Source: Arcobacteraceae bacterium (GTDB lineage Bacteria > Campylobacterota > Campylobacteria > Campylobacterales > Arcobacteraceae). Taken from it: a stretch of 64,000 nucleotides of DNA. The DNA is taken from NCBI GenBank assembly GCA_963662945.1, contig OY759974.1, positions 1,664,001-1,728,000 on the forward strand, written 5' to 3'. Positions 45,001 to 51,000 of this stretch are shown here, one piece after another (position 1 is the stretch's first letter; every line of letters starts with the position of its first letter). A program made the position numbers.

Positions 45001-48000
45001 ATAGCCAAGCTTACTAATGGTTTGGAAACTGACCTTCCCTTGAATCCCAATCAACTTTTTGGACGACATTGTGCTATAGTAGGTACAACTGGAGGAGGTA
45101 AAAGCTATACAATATCAAGGATACTTGAAGAGTTTTTACATCTAAATAAATCAAAAGCTATTTTAATAGACGCTACTGGAGAGTATGAAAACTTTTATGA
45201 CTTAGAAAATGTAAAAACAGTAAAGTTCGGTGCAAATGATGAAGATACATTTTTTCACTATTCAAGACTTAGAACGATGGATTTAGTAGCTTTATTTAGA
45301 CCAAGTGAAAATACACAAAAACCAAAATTAATTAACGCAATAGAAAGCCTCCGAACAGTAGAATATTATAATGTGAATAAAGATGTAAGTAATCCGACAT
45401 TCAATATTTTTAAAAAAGCGAATGAACCAAAAACTACTTATAATTCTTGGTATACATTAGCTAGAGCAGAAAAAAATTTTGATAATAGTTATTTTAATAT
45501 GAGAAACCTAAATCATCAACTAAACGAAGAATGTGTGAAGCTTAGTAGTGGTAATAATCAAACGATGTATGGCGATTATAACAATCAAGAAAAAGGATAT
45601 ATAACTTCATTATTGACAAGAATAGAGGTTCTTAAAAATAATAGTTTTTTTAATAATATATTTGGATTTAATAAACAATTAAATGATAACAATGAATTTA
45701 ATCAAGAATTAGAAAATTTTTTAGATATTAATCAAACAGAGCAAACATTATTTATAATATCACTGAAAGATGCATCATTTGAAAAAGGTTTAAGAGAAAT
45801 ATTAACAAATTCAATTGGTAACTATTTATTGGAAGAAGCTAGGCAATATAAATTTAAAGAAAATCCTCTTGTATTATTTGTTGATGAAGCACATCAGTTT
45901 CTAAAAAAAACTATTGCTGATGATTCGTTTCAAGATTTGGAGTTAGATGCTTTCGATAAAATAGCTAAAGAATGTAGAAAACATGGATTATTTTTATGTA
46001 TATCAACCCAAACACCAAGAGATATACCAGTAGGTACATTAAGTCAAATGGGTACATTTATAGTACATAGACTTATAAATGAAACAGATAGAAGTGTAAT
46101 AGAAAAAGCTTGTTCAGAAGGTAATAAAAGTTCATTGTCATATTTACCTACTTTACAATCAGGTGAAGCACTTTTAATAAGTATTGAAATGCCCATGCCA
46201 ATTATTATTAAAATTAAAGAACCTAATATAAAGCCTACATCATTAACACCAAAACTTTTTCAATAAGAGGAGAATCAATAATATGGATATAGTAAAATGT
46301 ACTTTAGATAATAAAACATATAGTGTTAAAGAATTTGAAAAACTTGACCCTTCTGAATTAGCTCAAAAAAGAAGGTTTTTAGAGTGTAAGTGTGGAGGTC
46401 CTGCTTTTTTTCGTAAAGCTTCACGAAGTGGTCAAGGAGCATGTTTTGGTGCAAGACCACATAAAGGAGATTGTGATTTAGCTTCTCCAGACAGTGAAAG
46501 TCTAAATGGAAGTTTATCTCCTGAGGATAAAGAGTTTATAAACTCAGGAAATGAAATAAGATTAGATTTACAATATGGTGCAGTGGAAAGTAAACATATT
46601 ACAGATGATGAGGATTTAAATGAAGCTGGAAAGAATAAAGGCTCATCTCATTCAGCAGAGAATGGAAAAGGAAAAAGTGTTCTTCAAAGAAGGTTGAGTA
46701 CTTTACTTCGCACATTAGTTAAGGAAAAAGACTTTTTTAAAGATTCTACTCAAGAAATTTATTTTAAAGCTAAACATCCATATTATGCAAAAAACTTTTT
46801 TATACATTCTGATTATATTACAAATGAATATGTAAAAAATATTAATTTTAGAAGTTATAGAGCAATTTGGAGTTTAATATCAGATTGTAGGTATTCTAAT
46901 GATGAAAAAAGTTTATGGATAAATACTGGTGGAAATGACAATATAAGTATTTTGATTGAAGAAGAATTTCTTAATGCTTTTCTTGATAGATTTAAAGTAA
47001 AAGATATTGAAGATTTATCAGGTAAATATGTTTTAAATATTGGAAAGTTAAAAGAATCTAAGCATAATAAAATTTATTCAATATTAGAAGACATATCTTA
47101 TATCTCTGTAGTATAATATAAATATTTCTAAAAAATATTAAGACCTTCAACAGACTTGTATTTATATGTTTTTAATAATAATTTTCAAAGGATATACTAA
47201 ACCTTACAACAAAATATGTTAAACTAAATAATCAATTTAGAAAAATCAAAAGGTATTATAAATATTATGAAAAACTTATGGACAGATGACGAATCAAGCA
47301 ACTACAAGACAGATTTAGAACTTCGAGTTTATACTTCACAACTATTGGGTAGAAGTGATGAGCTAGTACTTCATGGGGGTGGAAACACTTCTGTGAAATC
47401 TATCGTTGACGGACAAGATATATTGTATGTCAAAGGAAGTGGTTGGGATCTTGTGAGTATTGAAAAAGAGGGCTTTGCTCCTGTGGAACTTACTATGTTG
47501 CAAGATATGGCAAAAGTTGAAGAGCTAAGCGATAGTGAGATGGTATCAGCTCAAAGAGAAGCTATGATAGATAAGTCCGCTCCAAATCCATCTGTAGAAG
47601 CTATACTTCATGCAATCATCCCTTTTAAATTTGTAGACCATACCCATGCAGATGCGGTTGTAACTATCTCAAACAGTATAGATGGGGAAAAATATATCAA
47701 AGAGGTGTATCCAAACTTTTTGGTTATCCCTTATGTGATGCCTGGATTTATACTAGCACATACAATTTATAAGATGATACAAGGATTAGATTGGGAGAGT
47801 TGCGAGGGGATTATCTTACTTAATCATGGGATATTTACTTTTGATGATGATGCGAAAAAATCATATGATAAGATGATAGATGCCGTGACACTTGCTGAAA
47901 ACTTTTTAGATAAAAATGCTCCACTAGAGATAGAAAAATATAGCCCGCGAGGGATGCTTGATATTGATAAACTCCAACAAATCATAAGTAGTGAGAAAGG

Positions 48001-51000
48001 GTATGAAGTATTTGTAAAAGTAAATCAATCTCCACTAGCACTTCACTACGCTTCAACTAGAAACCTCAAAACATTTGCTACAAGAGGGGTACTTACACCT
48101 GAACATATCATACGAACAAAAAGAGAGCCACTTATCTTAGAAGATGATAATATTCAAAGTGCAATAGATAGATACAAAGAGGATTATACAGCATATTTCA
48201 ATACTCACAAAAAAGATGAGATTATGTTAAATCCATCTCCAAACTGGGTAGTGGTAAAAAACTTTGGAACAGTAAGCTTTGGAAAAAATGAAAAAGAAGC
48301 AAGTATCATAGAAGATATAAACAACCACACTATGAATGCTGTTTTAAAAGCAGATATGTTAGGTGGCTATGAAAGTATAAGCTTACAAGATAGCTTTGAG
48401 ATGGAATATTGGGAACTCGAACAAGCCAAACTTAAAAAGTAGGACAAAAAATGCAACAATATTTAATGGCAATAGATGCAGGAACAGGAAGTGTAAGAGC
48501 TGTAATATTTGATATAGAGGGAAATCAAATAGCAATGTCACAACAAGAGTGGACACATCTTGAAGAGGTAGGCGTTCCTAACTCTATGAGTTTTGATTGT
48601 GATACAAACTGGGAGTTAACTGTATCTTGTATCCAAGAGTCTATAAAGTTAGCTAATATTGATGCTAAAGATATAGTTGCTGTAAGTTCTACAAGCATGA
48701 GAGAGGGGATTGTCCTTTATGATAAAGAAGGAGTTGAACTTTTTGCTGTTGCTAATGTAGATGCAAGAGCAGGGGATGAGGTAAAGTATCTTCATGAGCA
48801 TTTTAATGGACTTGAAGAGCAGTTTTATAAAGAGTCTGGGCAAACCTTTGCTTTGGGTGCAATTCCTCGTATTATGTGGCTTAAAAACAATAAACCAGAA
48901 CTTTATAATCAAGTAGCCAAAATAGGGATGATAAGTGATTGGATACTTTATAAACTAAGTGGCATATTTTCAAGTGACCCAAGTAATAGTGGTACAAGTG
49001 GTATCTTTAGTTTAGAAAAAAGAGATTGGGTAGCTTCAATGGCTTCAAATGTAGGACTAAAAGATGATATTTTTCCAAATGTTTACGAAGTAGGAGAGGT
49101 TATAGGAAGAGTTACAGATAATACTTGTGGACTGGAAAGTTCTACATTAGTGGTACAAGGTGGTGGAGATGTACAACTTGGTTCTGCTGGTCTTGGAGTT
49201 GTAGAACTTGGAGATGTAGCTATTTTAGGTGGTTCATTTTGGCAACAAATAGTCAATATAAAAAGTGACATAACACCACCTGCTGATATGAGTATTCGAG
49301 TAAATCCACACGTAGTTTCAAACCAATCACAAGCGGAAGGGATCACTTTTTTTAGTGGTTTGGTTATGCGATGGTTTCGAGATGCTTTTTGTGATATGGA
49401 AAAGCTAGAAGCTAAAGAAAAAGGTGTAGATGTTTATGAGATACTTGAAAGCAAAGCTTCACAAGTACCAGTTGGTTCAAATGGTATTATTCCTATATTT
49501 AGTGATAGTATGAAATATGGGAAATGGTACCATGCAGCTCCTAGTTTTTTAAATCTAAGTATTGACCCAAATATTTGTAATCGCCCATCAATGTTTAGAA
49601 GTTTACAAGAAAATGCGTGTATCGTAAGTGATATAAACTTGAAAAAAATAGAAGCCTTTAGTGGTATAAAAGCTAAAACAATAGTATTTGCAAGTGGGGC
49701 TAGTCGTGGGAAACTTTGGTGCCAAATTTTAGCTGATGTAACTGGTTGTACTATAAAAGTGCCAAAAGTAACTGAAGCTACAGCTTTGGGGGCTGCTATG
49801 GCGGCTGGAGTTGGTGCTGGAATTTATAGTGATTTACAAACTGCTGCAAAAAAGCTTGTAGTTTGGGATAAAAAGTATCAACCAAATATGGCAAACCATG
49901 AAAAATATAAAGAGATAAAAGAGACTTGGCAAAAAGCGTACGATAAGCAACTAGAGCTTGTAGATGAGGGGATTACAACCTCTATGTGGAAAGCACCAGG
50001 TTTATAGGTAATTTAAAAATCGCACAATTCTATATTCAGTTTTAGTTAAGATTAACAAAAAAATTACGCGTGATTTGAAGATAGAGAGCAAGGAATTAAT
50101 AGCTTTATAAATGAAGAGCTATAATAAGTAATTAACTACTAAAGCTATTTTCTTTAATCTTAACTAAAACTGAATATAGAATTGTGCTAGATTAAAAAAT
50201 ATTTGATACAATACAAAAAATAAAATAAGGATAAAGAATGTCAACAATAACAAAAAGGGTAACATTTATAGCAAAAGAGGGTTGTGAAGATAAAATGAAA
50301 GAGCTTTTAACAGCTATGGTTGAGCCATCAAAAAAAGAGGATGGTTGTATTTTTTATGATATTTTTCAATATGAAAATAATAGAAGAAAATTTTCAGCAA
50401 TCGAGTCTTGGCGAGATGAGAAAGCTTTAGATGGACATAAAGCAACAGCACATTATGCAGTATATAAATCTAGTTATGAGCCTTATTGTGAAGATAAATA
50501 TACTGATGAGTTAGAGATTTTAGGTTAATATTATTTTATAATTTTTTATAGATTGTAAAAAATTCTTGTAGATTATCAAAAAAGATATCTACAAGTTTAG
50601 GATCAAATTGTTTTCCCTTTTCATTTTTAATTATTTCAAATATCTTTTCATTATCCCAAAATAATTGATTTTTTCCAAGAGTATAAATATAATTAGCTAA
50701 AGCTACAATTCTTCCATGAATACTTATTTCTTCATCTTTAAGTCCCATAGGGTAACCATTTCCATCATATCTTTCATGACGTTCATAGGATATATTTGAA
50801 GCAATAAATTCAAATTGTTCATTTTGGAGTGTATCAAATATTTCTAGTTGTTCTTTATGATTATGTGTAATAGCTTTTTTAATAAGAAATATCTCTTCTT
50901 TATCTAATCCATGATATTTCGCTAAAACTTCTGCATATAAAGCTATTATTTCAAAATTTTTATCAAATGAATGATTTTGAGTTAAAAGATTTATAGACAT

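Follow-up and report, generated by a model that had tools for sequence, protein, structure and literature searches.

A predicted cytoplasmic route for DPD (AI-2 precursor) catabolism with LsrK and without an Lsr importer, LsrR or LsrF in an Arcobacteraceae bacterium

The DHAP shunt, a route for 5-deoxyribose disposal, consists of MtnK, MtnA and Ald2/DrdA. OtnC/YgbL, a 3-oxo-tetronate 4-phosphate decarboxylase, acts on an oxidised sugar phosphate and frees DHAP through a C-C cleavage that is not an aldol reaction. The Lsr system of Escherichia coli and Salmonella is described in PMC8016206 as made up of lsrRK and lsrACDBFG, with LsrG as an isomerase and LsrF as a thiolase. The rhamnulose-1-phosphate aldolase-dehydrogenase RhaEW/YuxG converts a ketose 1-phosphate to DHAP and a carboxylic acid, according to PMC3870299.

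Here, we analysed a 64,000 bp stretch (the window) that starts at contig position 1664001 of an Arcobacteraceae genome, which is a single contig, 99.99% complete, and contains luxS. A genome-wide survey's note had placed a trio of genes here, encoding an aldolase-fold protein, LsrK and a small LsrG-like protein, and three adjacent ORFs on the same strand were indeed found (Table 1). The window positions in that note were right and its contig offset (1696001) was not. Its NCBIfam results, a kinase over the LsrK cut-off, a weak LsrG match and an aldolase-fold protein (ALD) that matches only the aldolase half of its family, were reproduced with the scores given below.

Table 1. Features of the lsrK locus (window positions)
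Feature	Position	Strand	Description
ALD, class II aldolase/adducin-fold metalloenzyme	47267-48442	+	391 aa ORF; PF00596
lsrK, AI-2 (DPD) kinase, FGGY family	48451-50007	+	518 aa ORF; NF008187
MITE-like inverted-repeat element, 186 nt	50012-50197	no strand	between lsrK and ABM gene
ABM-fold protein, candidate P-DPD isomerase	50238-50528	+	96 aa ORF; PF03992

The survey's further claim, that importer permeases, lsrR and lsrF are absent, was borne out by family searches that found neither the DeoC/LsrF family (PF01791) nor the BPD_transp_2 permease family in the genome, and by E. coli LsrR, LsrC, LsrD and LsrF queries, none of which had a match there. The best match to E. coli LsrB, a protein encoded next to a GGDEF-EAL gene, reached only E 0.0025. 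The genome thus differs from the canonical Lsr system in having no lsrACDB importer, no LsrR by the E. coli query and no LsrF thiolase of the DeoC/class I fold. SahH, mtnA (PF01008) and mtnK were likewise not found in the genome, and acs and tpi are both present.

We propose, with a probability of about 0.6, that the locus encodes a minimal cytoplasmic pathway for the catabolism of DPD, the AI-2 precursor, that has no importer or repressor. LsrK would phosphorylate DPD to P-DPD. The ABM protein, or elsewhere an lsrK-adjacent cupin, would isomerise P-DPD to P-HPD (3-hydroxy-2,4-pentanedione 5-phosphate; hydrated form P-TPO), a role suggested by co-occurrence. The ALD metal would then bind the DHAP part of P-HPD, and water would cleave the C-acetyl bond in a retro-Claisen reaction, giving DHAP and acetate in place of the CoA-dependent LsrF step. 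Acs and triose-phosphate isomerase would process acetate and DHAP further. The scheme shares with the E. coli and Salmonella system an orthologous kinase, an ABM-fold protein as the putative isomerase and the predicted products, DHAP and a C2 unit. It differs in its last enzyme, which is of the class II metal fold rather than a class I TIM barrel and would yield acetate rather than acetyl-CoA. Our literature search did not find the module or the reaction described; earlier mention in Marques 2011, Pereira 2008 or Marques 2014 is possible.

The window kinase is a true LsrK by family membership, and phosphorylation of DPD is predicted on that basis. It scores 853 bits against the equivalog NF008187 (cut-off 528) and 183 against the next family, and shares 54% identity with E. 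coli LsrK across 519 aa. Its closest PDB structure is 5YA0, a solved LsrK (E 5e-187, residues 3-518), followed by glycerol kinase (E 5e-30). FGGY kinases change substrate readily and the ABM protein is not an LsrG, which would suit a kinase whose substrate is a different small ketose or deoxy-sugar, the resemblance to the Lsr pathway then being historical. We consider this very improbable, given the 853 against 183 bits and the occurrence of homologues of ALD and the cupin within bona fide lsr operons. In the LsrK tree, Campylobacterales and Shewanella sequences grouped with a support of only 0.77; for this reason, and as the tree has no outgroup, we claim no donor.

The samples used for comparison included 251 genomes of the order and the fetched stretches around 60 Campylobacterales lsrK loci. 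lsrK was present in 73/251 genomes (~29%), 70 of them with luxS; the survey had reported 62/201, 60 with luxS.

The survey had called the small protein an LsrG-like isomerase. An ABM fold and a candidate LsrG role stand, but membership of LsrG does not: the protein scores 32 against NF007791 (cut-off 135), lacks Asn25, which is common to 8/8 LsrGs aligned from lsr operons, and belongs to an lsrK-linked Campylobacterales clade of its own. It is 24-36% identical to LsrGs, and generic ABM structures scored above LsrG in the structure search. Glu54, His65 and His70 are present, and these residues are also found in unrelated ABM proteins; a catalytic role for them in LsrG was reportedly described in Marques 2011. 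We regard the ABM protein as a candidate P-DPD isomerase, an analogue of LsrG. Its orthologues (E<=1e-20) occur in 53/251 genomes, of which 50 have lsrK. A cupin that the survey did not mention was found in 20/60 lsrK loci, directly after lsrK in 17. Either an ABM orthologue or the cupin is present in 68/73 lsrK genomes (ABM only in 40, cupin only in 18, both in 10), and we conclude that the cupin can stand in for the ABM protein. The cupin, which is carried by relatives, is 55% identical to one adjacent to lsrK in Salmonella. A Bacillus locus has the cupin placed between lsrK and lsrF, and the stretch contains no lsrG, an arrangement that fits an isomerase role. Its best PDB matches are quercetin dioxygenases, and searches of PDB and NCBIfam returned no specific cupin family.

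ALD is a member of the class II aldolase/adducin superfamily by its PF00596 domain (68 bits, cut-off 22), its fold and a metal site of one Glu and three His (E111, H125, H127 and H187, invariant across 45 sequences). The predicted model (pLDDT 94.7) matched 3M4R with Z 31.7 and FucA with Z 19.1 (residues about 1-220). Structures of the DHAP-shunt enzymes Ald2/DrdA (6BTG/6BTD) also turned up in the structure searches. ALD shares its fold with OtnC/YgbL (6VOQ, Z 18.5), which differs in losing CO2, in consisting of a single small domain and in being only 18% identical. The second domain of ALD has H280, R283, K285, H354 and EYW, all invariant in the 45 sequences. Residues 245-363, searched as part of the whole model, reached Z of about 3-4 only, and comparison of the two halves for internal duplication gave an hhalign probability of 4% (E 0.01).

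ALD covers positions 1-400 only of the 657-position NCBIfam model for the PRK08324 aldolase/SDR family, and thus corresponds to the N-terminal part without the SDR. A search of the genome for a free-standing SDR half gave no close match, the best having E 4e-13 and about 22-26% identity, and against PDB the SDR half matched generic SDRs only. With RhaEW/YuxG, as described in PMC3870299, ALD shares a two-part N-terminal region, the His triad and the EYW motif. It differs in having only 25-30% identity, no SDR half and a separate position in a 58-row tree (one chosen row without EYW was excluded), the deep nodes of which are weak. ALD also falls short of the RhaEW model TIGR02632 (226, cut-off 568) and has no rha genes nearby, and rhamnose catabolism was rejected for this genome.

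The survey's note proposed that the aldolase-fold enzyme stands in for LsrF, and the distribution of ALD supports this. Both lsrK and ALD were found in 66 of the 251 genomes, lsrK only in seven, ALD only in two and neither in 176; 4/7 of the lsrK-only genomes and 2/2 of the ALD-only genomes are less than 90% complete. ALD lies within the fetched stretch of only 33/60 lsrK loci, yet co-occurrence at the genome level is high, and the link between the two genes therefore outlasts adjacency. Outside Campylobacterota, 16 lsrK loci were hand-picked from E. coli and plasmid records, the plasmid matches numbering 80, with Sinorhizobium accounting for 53. A stand-alone ALD without lsrF was present in nine, lsrF without ALD in six, neither in one and both in none. 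The nine ALD-type loci are all of the alphaproteobacterial type, Sinorhizobium meliloti included, and represent one lineage. In S. meliloti the gene order is lsrA-C-D-B-ALD, and its LsrB is 79% identical to that of E. coli; ALD homologues thus take the place of lsrF in operons of the canonical lsr type. S. meliloti pSymB and related alphaproteobacterial loci resemble the window locus in combining lsrK, an LsrG-type ABM protein and a homologue of ALD that stands alone, retains the metal ligands and is 36-39% identical, with no lsrF. They differ in that they keep lsrACDB, lsrR and an unmistakable LsrG, which is 41-54% identical to that of E. coli. Pereira et al. 2008, who reportedly named these lsr genes, may have labelled the ALD homologue as the lsrF counterpart.

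In 101 Shewanella genomes, ALD was found in seven and LsrK in six, with ALD directly upstream in 6/6 of the latter; this set is probably a single transfer. As evidence to the contrary, an LsrF-like gene (45%) shares one locus (L174) with an intact ALD-SDR. PF01791 matches were found in 14/73 lsrK genomes, and among the ten loci read, four align to LsrF at 26-28% and six do not align. Replacement of LsrF by ALD, as judged from gene position, is now much better supported than in the survey's note. The aldolase reaction that the survey had inferred is less likely than hydrolysis of a beta-diketone. That ALD terminates a DPD pathway is very probable.

Fused relatives of ALD bear on the reaction. 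Among 11 Campylobacterales ALD-SDR fusions, SDR motifs are kept in nine, and mtnA is intact in 9/9 of those genomes. In the two with a decayed SDR, mtnA is absent (G008) or split (G196). In Shewanella, 4/4 lsrK-adjacent ALD proteins read end in what is left of an SDR, from which the Gly-rich, NAG and YxxxK motifs have gone. The Campylobacterales fusions sit straight after mtnK-mtnA, a likeness to the DHAP shunt, and a fusion in a Shinella plasmid is near both genes. In 45 intact fusions outside Campylobacterota, where many loci are short, mtnA was within 8 kb in one and lsrK in none. A small class II aldolase lies beside mtnA in 17/17 genomes with a stand-alone ALD and mtnA and in 12/12 mtnA genomes without ALD, and in 0/10 fusion genomes. 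The small aldolase may persist beside mtnA merely through the operon moving as a unit. An ALD-SDR fusion would be the parent enzyme: its SDR would begin by oxidising 5-deoxyribulose 1-phosphate, supplied by MtnK/MtnA, at C4 to P-HPD, and would become dispensable once LsrK supplies P-HPD. The canonical DHAP shunt was rejected for the window genome, which has no mtnA or mtnK; moreover, ALD is a larger protein of a different class II family and would give acetate, not acetaldehyde.

For RhaEW, PMC3870299 reports that neither DHAP nor lactate was formed without NAD+, that NADH gave no activity, and that free lactate was released in an assay listing no CoA. The NAD+ dependence could also be explained by an unfavourable aldol equilibrium or by domain coupling. 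As C4 oxidation of 5-deoxyribulose 1-phosphate would yield P-HPD, the product of LsrG, and as RhaEW needs NAD+, we favour the view of ALD as a P-HPD hydrolase, and from these comparisons it probably ends the pathway by hydrolysis to acetate. Alternatively, ALD could indeed work as a class II aldolase: P-HPD would be turned into a 5-deoxypentulose 1-phosphate by an NAD(P)H reductase encoded elsewhere, ALD would cleave this to DHAP and acetaldehyde, and in the fusions the SDR would act after the aldolase. ALD has the fold and the metal ligands of the FucA/RhaD/DrdA aldolases, the fusions occupy the usual place of the DHAP-shunt aldolase directly after mtnA, and the authors of PMC3870299 read RhaEW as an aldolase followed by an aldehyde dehydrogenase. 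However, no reductase recurs in the 60 Campylobacterales lsrK loci or in annotated alphaproteobacterial operons, the obvious candidate, the fused SDR, is decayed or missing beside lsrK, and the small aldolase is retained wherever a stand-alone ALD occurs with mtnA (17/17). We consider a true aldolase unlikely.

No more probable is a different terminal chemistry, either acetyl transfer to CoA or phosphate, which would conserve energy in the manner of LsrF, or an O2-dependent cleavage that gives phosphoglycolate, where the cupin might serve as dioxygenase. Decarboxylases and a dioxygenase (YgbL/OtnC-type, POD) are also built on the class II aldolase fold, and the invariant residues of the second ALD domain and the quercetin dioxygenases at the top of the cupin matches are compatible with such reactions. 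Against them, RhaEW yields a free acid in an assay for which PMC3870299 lists no CoA, and the cupin is complementary to the ABM protein, not to ALD, and in Bacillus takes a place that fits an isomerase. Hydrolysis of P-HPD remains our preferred reading, and its extension to the whole PRK08324/RhaEW family is more tentative. The N-terminal domain would then be a metal-dependent 2,4-diketo sugar-phosphate hydrolase, with C4 oxidised first by the SDR, P-HPD would be a hub at which two kinds of S-adenosylmethionine waste, DPD from LuxS and 5-deoxyribose from radical-SAM enzymes, meet at a single enzyme, and AI-2 would be destroyed by a second route, independent of CoA, in free-living Campylobacterales, some Shewanella and rhizobia. 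A large family that is widely annotated could thereby receive a new reaction. In lsr operons without LsrF, that of S. meliloti among them, ALD also becomes a candidate for the final step of AI-2 breakdown that is missing there. A cofactor-free P-HPD hydrolase, if confirmed, would be a usable part for AI-2 quenching.

The substrate is probably for the most part self-made, the cell's own LuxS being the likeliest source. The survey had itself pointed out that co-occurrence with luxS is weak evidence, and luxS, present in 238/251 genomes, is indeed non-discriminating. Its claim that metK or luxS is often nearby (metK in 21/80) did not hold, each being present in only 3/60 lsrK loci. With luxS near-universal and this linkage uncommon, recycling of the cell's own DPD is a matter of inference. 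One genome has ALD-lsrK-cupin-luxS-metK in a row, another has ABM-luxS, and luxS is divergent from ALD in 5/80 ALD loci. As 168/238 luxS genomes are without lsrK, the route is dispensable. This patchy distribution would also suit enzymes that mainly remove the AI-2 of neighbours (scavenging or quenching), reaching it by diffusion or an unrelated transporter, and in S. meliloti the same three activities serve imported AI-2 without luxS (PMC3386761). That role, though compatible with the main reading, is doubtful: lsrB, lsrC, lsrR and lsrF are absent from all 60 lsrK loci, the window genome has no BPD_transp_2 permease, and there is the occasional physical linkage to luxS and metK. The survey had suggested a ribose-type binding protein as an AI-2 sensor or importer. 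Its gene is 19 bp upstream of a PAS-GGDEF-EAL gene, and the protein therefore looks like a sensor partner; with this pairing and no BPD_transp_2 family in the genome, the importer role was rejected. Consumption of DPD appears to be within reach of about 29% of sampled order genomes (73/251), and their loci contain no receptor, importer or repressor, which offers a handle on the old question of whether Campylobacterota use LuxS for metabolism or for signalling.

The element between lsrK and the ABM gene was not mentioned by the survey. It has 50 nt arms that are 88% complementary (fold z -9.0). No terminator was found in a scan of the locus, and a promoter scan returned 23 promoter-like sites against 17 +/- 4 by chance. 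The element is MITE-like, lies outside the pathway and may separate the transcription of lsrK and the ABM gene. Five near-full copies (75-85% identity) and one partial copy are found elsewhere in the genome, in intergenic positions.

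The three ORFs of the module, which encode a 391 aa class II aldolase-fold protein (ALD), LsrK and a 96 aa ABM-fold protein, are all on the plus strand and lie where the genome-wide survey's note had placed them. The first two are separated by 8 bp, and lsrK and the ABM gene by 230 bp that include a MITE-like element with 50 nt inverted arms. The window spans positions 1664001-1728000 of C1, the single contig of the host genome (99.99% complete). Five near-full copies and one partial copy of this element are found elsewhere in that genome; the copies are intergenic, three of them between convergent genes. 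The GC content of ALD is 0.36, compared with 0.29 for the genome.

Features of the window and of other loci discussed in the text
Feature	Located in	Positions	Strand	Remarks
Low-GC stretch (0.22-0.28)	window	42563-47116		Holds the Sir2-HerA pair and two orphan ORFs
Sir2-HerA anti-phage pair	window	43364-46266	+	Directly upstream of ALD; PADLOC E 5e-89 and 3e-173
ALD	window	47267-48442	+	ORF
lsrK	window	48451-50007	+	ORF
MITE-like element, 186 nt	window	50012-50197
ABM gene	window	50238-50528	+	ORF
Response regulator with HD-GYP-type domain, then 154 aa partial paralogue of its HD domain	window	50536-52217	-
1897 aa repeat-rich adhesin-like protein facing LuxR-type regulator and HlyD-like secretion gene	window	52335-60068		Read from sequence
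Ribose-type binding protein and PAS-GGDEF-EAL gene	host genome (G000), contig C1, locus L269	838974-842546	-
Rhizobium leguminosarum ALD-SDR fusion	locus L263	1-10134
Deinococcus psychrotolerans lsrK region	plasmid, locus L246	8683-12366

By all sequence tests the kinase is the true LsrK that the note had named: it scores 853 against the NCBIfam NF008187 cut-off of 528 (next family 183), is 54% identical to the E. coli enzyme across 519 aa and matches PDB 5YA0 (E 5e-187). ALD contains PF00596 and matches aldolase/SDR fusion models over the first 400 positions only. Across 45 aligned ALD sequences there is no variation in E111, H125, H127 or H187, nor in the GGGNTS and KGSG motifs, and the close homologues that carry names belong to Arcobacteraceae and other Campylobacterota. 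The predicted structure (pLDDT 94.7) resembles the uncharacterised 3M4R (Z 31.7), and its first 220 residues the FucA, YgbL, MtnB and RhaD folds (Z 16-19). The third protein, described earlier as an LsrG-like isomerase, does have the ABM fold, but it is not a member of LsrG, as it scores 32 against a cut-off of 135, is nearer to generic ABM structures and lacks the Asn25 present in 8/8 aligned LsrGs.

The reported lack of an lsr importer, lsrR and lsrF was borne out: no SahH, DeoC/LsrF, sugar ABC permease or mtnA was found in the host genome, E. coli LsrR, LsrC, LsrD and LsrF queries found nothing there, and neither did one query for mtnK. luxS is present, distant from the module. The sole ribose-type binding protein, separated by 19 bp from the PAS-GGDEF-EAL gene that follows it, had been proposed to sense or import AI-2; its best match is a sensor domain and no transporter is paired with it, so that sensing stands as a possibility and import does not. 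It may sense some ligand; the arrangement resembles a periplasmic sensor feeding c-di-GMP, with AI-2 a possible ligand.

The same 251 Campylobacterales genomes were used for all six distribution searches and, because they are kin and not independent, the counts carry no statistic. lsrK was found in 73 and ALD in 68 (both 66, lsrK only 7, ALD only 2, neither 176). Reading up to 8 kb either side of lsrK in 60 of the 73 genomes revealed ALD in 33 loci, the ABM gene in 25, a small cupin in 20, luxS and metK in 3 each, and lsrF, lsrR, lsrB or lsrC in none. With metK in only 3/60 loci, and luxS likewise, the frequent linkage to these genes that the note had described was not reproduced. The order ALD-lsrK-cupin-luxS-metK occurs in one genome and ABM-luxS in another; in 5/80 ALD loci, luxS and ALD are divergently arranged. 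As luxS is present in 238/251 genomes, its co-occurrence with lsrK (70/73) says nothing. PF01791 proteins occur in 14/73 lsrK genomes; resemblance to LsrF does not exceed 26-28% in the 10 that were read, which are probably fructose-bisphosphate aldolases.

When plasmids were searched, the top matches were stand-alone ALD homologues of Sinorhizobium meliloti pSymB, where lsrA-lsrC-lsrD-lsrB-ALD is divergent from lsrR-lsrK-lsrG. This ALD gene has reportedly been labelled the lsrF counterpart. Outside Campylobacterota, E. coli K-12 was added to a manual choice among 80 plasmid hits, which made 16 lsrK loci (not whole genomes). Of these, nine have ALD (36-39% identity) without lsrF (two S. meliloti, Thalassospira, Alloyangia, Roseicitreum, strain XES5, Tritonibacter, Rhizobium WL3 and Shinella), six have lsrF without ALD (E. 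coli, Salmonella, Klebsiella, Enterobacter, Lacticaseibacillus and Bacillus), Deinococcus has neither, and none has both. By gene position, ALD takes the place of LsrF, as had been proposed. Six aligned alphaproteobacterial-type ALDs keep all metal ligands and fall into one group with the Campylobacterales ALDs, to the exclusion of RhaEW (support 1.0). Of 101 genomes of the genus Shewanella, 7 encode ALD and 6 LsrK; the lsrK gene invariably comes right after the one for ALD, and the cupin follows LsrK in all 5 loci read. The strongest support for a DPD-derived substrate of ALD comes from its replacement of lsrF in lsrK loci and its link to LsrK in Shewanella. That the cell makes this DPD itself is the weakest step.

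In Campylobacterales, 11/68 ALDs are fused to an SDR, and seven fusions adjoin mtnA. The glycine-rich, NAG and YxxxK motifs are kept in nine fusions, and mtnA is intact in 9/9 of those genomes; the SDR is truncated and motif-less in the other two, from one genome without mtnA (G008) and one with a split mtnA (G196). Four Shewanella ALDs read, beside lsrK, have an SDR decayed likewise. NF006197, 'bifunctional aldolase/short-chain dehydrogenase', includes Shewanella proteins that have lost the SDR catalytic motifs (loci L148, L249-L255). A separate small class II aldolase lies beside mtnA in 17/17 genomes with stand-alone ALD and mtnA and in 12/12 mtnA genomes without ALD, and in 0/10 fusion genomes. 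It could be kept there through operon linkage alone. Together with the pairing of intact SDR and intact mtnA, this pattern suggests that ALD works on the MtnA product only where it has a functional SDR, and serves LsrK without one.

The gene after mtnA in most Campylobacterales mtnA loci (L193-L207, L213-L223) belongs to a divergent 200-215 aa class II aldolase family under every NCBIfam cut-off (best MtnB, 41 against 137). In some Campylobacterales (L197, L208, L209, L218, L224) the gene order is mtnK, sugar ABC transporter, mtnA, GntR, FucA-like aldolase; three of these loci are whole and the other two are truncated at contig ends. This looks like an operon for import and catabolism of methylthioribose or 5-deoxyribose.

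C4 oxidation of 5-deoxyribulose 1-phosphate gives 3-hydroxy-2,4-pentanedione 5-phosphate (P-HPD), which PMC8016206 describes as the product of LsrG and as split by LsrF to DHAP and acetyl-CoA. ALD may instead hydrolyse P-HPD to DHAP and acetate; Acs and triose-phosphate isomerase are encoded in the host genome. In the study of RhaEW in PMC3870299, no DHAP or lactate was formed without NAD+, NADH gave no activity, and the authors concluded that aldolase activity requires the dehydrogenase. Oxidation first, then hydrolysis of a 2,4-diketone, explains this NAD+ need directly, although the finding could be explained in other ways and RhaEW is only remotely related to ALD (25-30% identity). From the SDR and mtnA pattern, the fitting chemistry and the RhaEW requirement, we infer that ALD is a P-HPD hydrolase giving DHAP and acetate. 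Against this, at one Verrucomicrobiales locus an LsrF-like gene accompanies an intact fusion. Among the 45 intact fusions found in other phyla, mtnA is within 8 kb of one and lsrK of none, and the sugar ABC/dehydrogenase operon that contains a Rhizobium leguminosarum fusion lacks both genes, so the family acts on additional substrates or has partners that are not linked to it; the rhizobial locus suggests another substrate. In Bacteroidota, the fusions are part of an unexplained catabolic module: they recurrently adjoin PEP_hydrolase-like and UPF0261 genes (L144, L160, L166, L177, L181, L182, L188), and an alpha/beta hydrolase is often present too.

The module is real and a new variant of AI-2/DPD catabolism. 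A literature search, in part poorly aimed and not extending to the primary papers on LsrG, LsrF and S. meliloti, found no account of lsrK in Campylobacterota, of a class II enzyme in place of LsrF, or of hydrolase chemistry for RhaEW; PMC12503165 counts full lsr operons only, and PMC3386761, PMC2728841 and PMC12274486 were also covered. A specific, cheaply testable prediction follows for an uncharacterised enzyme family.

ABM orthologues (E<=1e-20, set at a score drop from 1e-21 to 6e-14) were found in 53/251 genomes, 50 with lsrK, and the cupin in 29/251, 28 with lsrK. The 73 lsrK genomes have ABM only (40), the cupin only (18), both (10) or neither (5), and the cupin was not found in the host genome. 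It is 55% identical to the Salmonella cupin behind lsrK, which by position we take to be the gene that Quan and Bentley (PMC3420918) found consistently adjacent to lsrK and suggested to process AI-2-P. The Bacillus locus has the order lsrK-cupin-lsrF, and no lsrG within the stretch. ABM and the cupin look like alternative, putative isomerases. On the Deinococcus psychrotolerans plasmid, in a 24 kb stretch without lsrF or ALD, the order is MFS transporter-lsrK-cupin.
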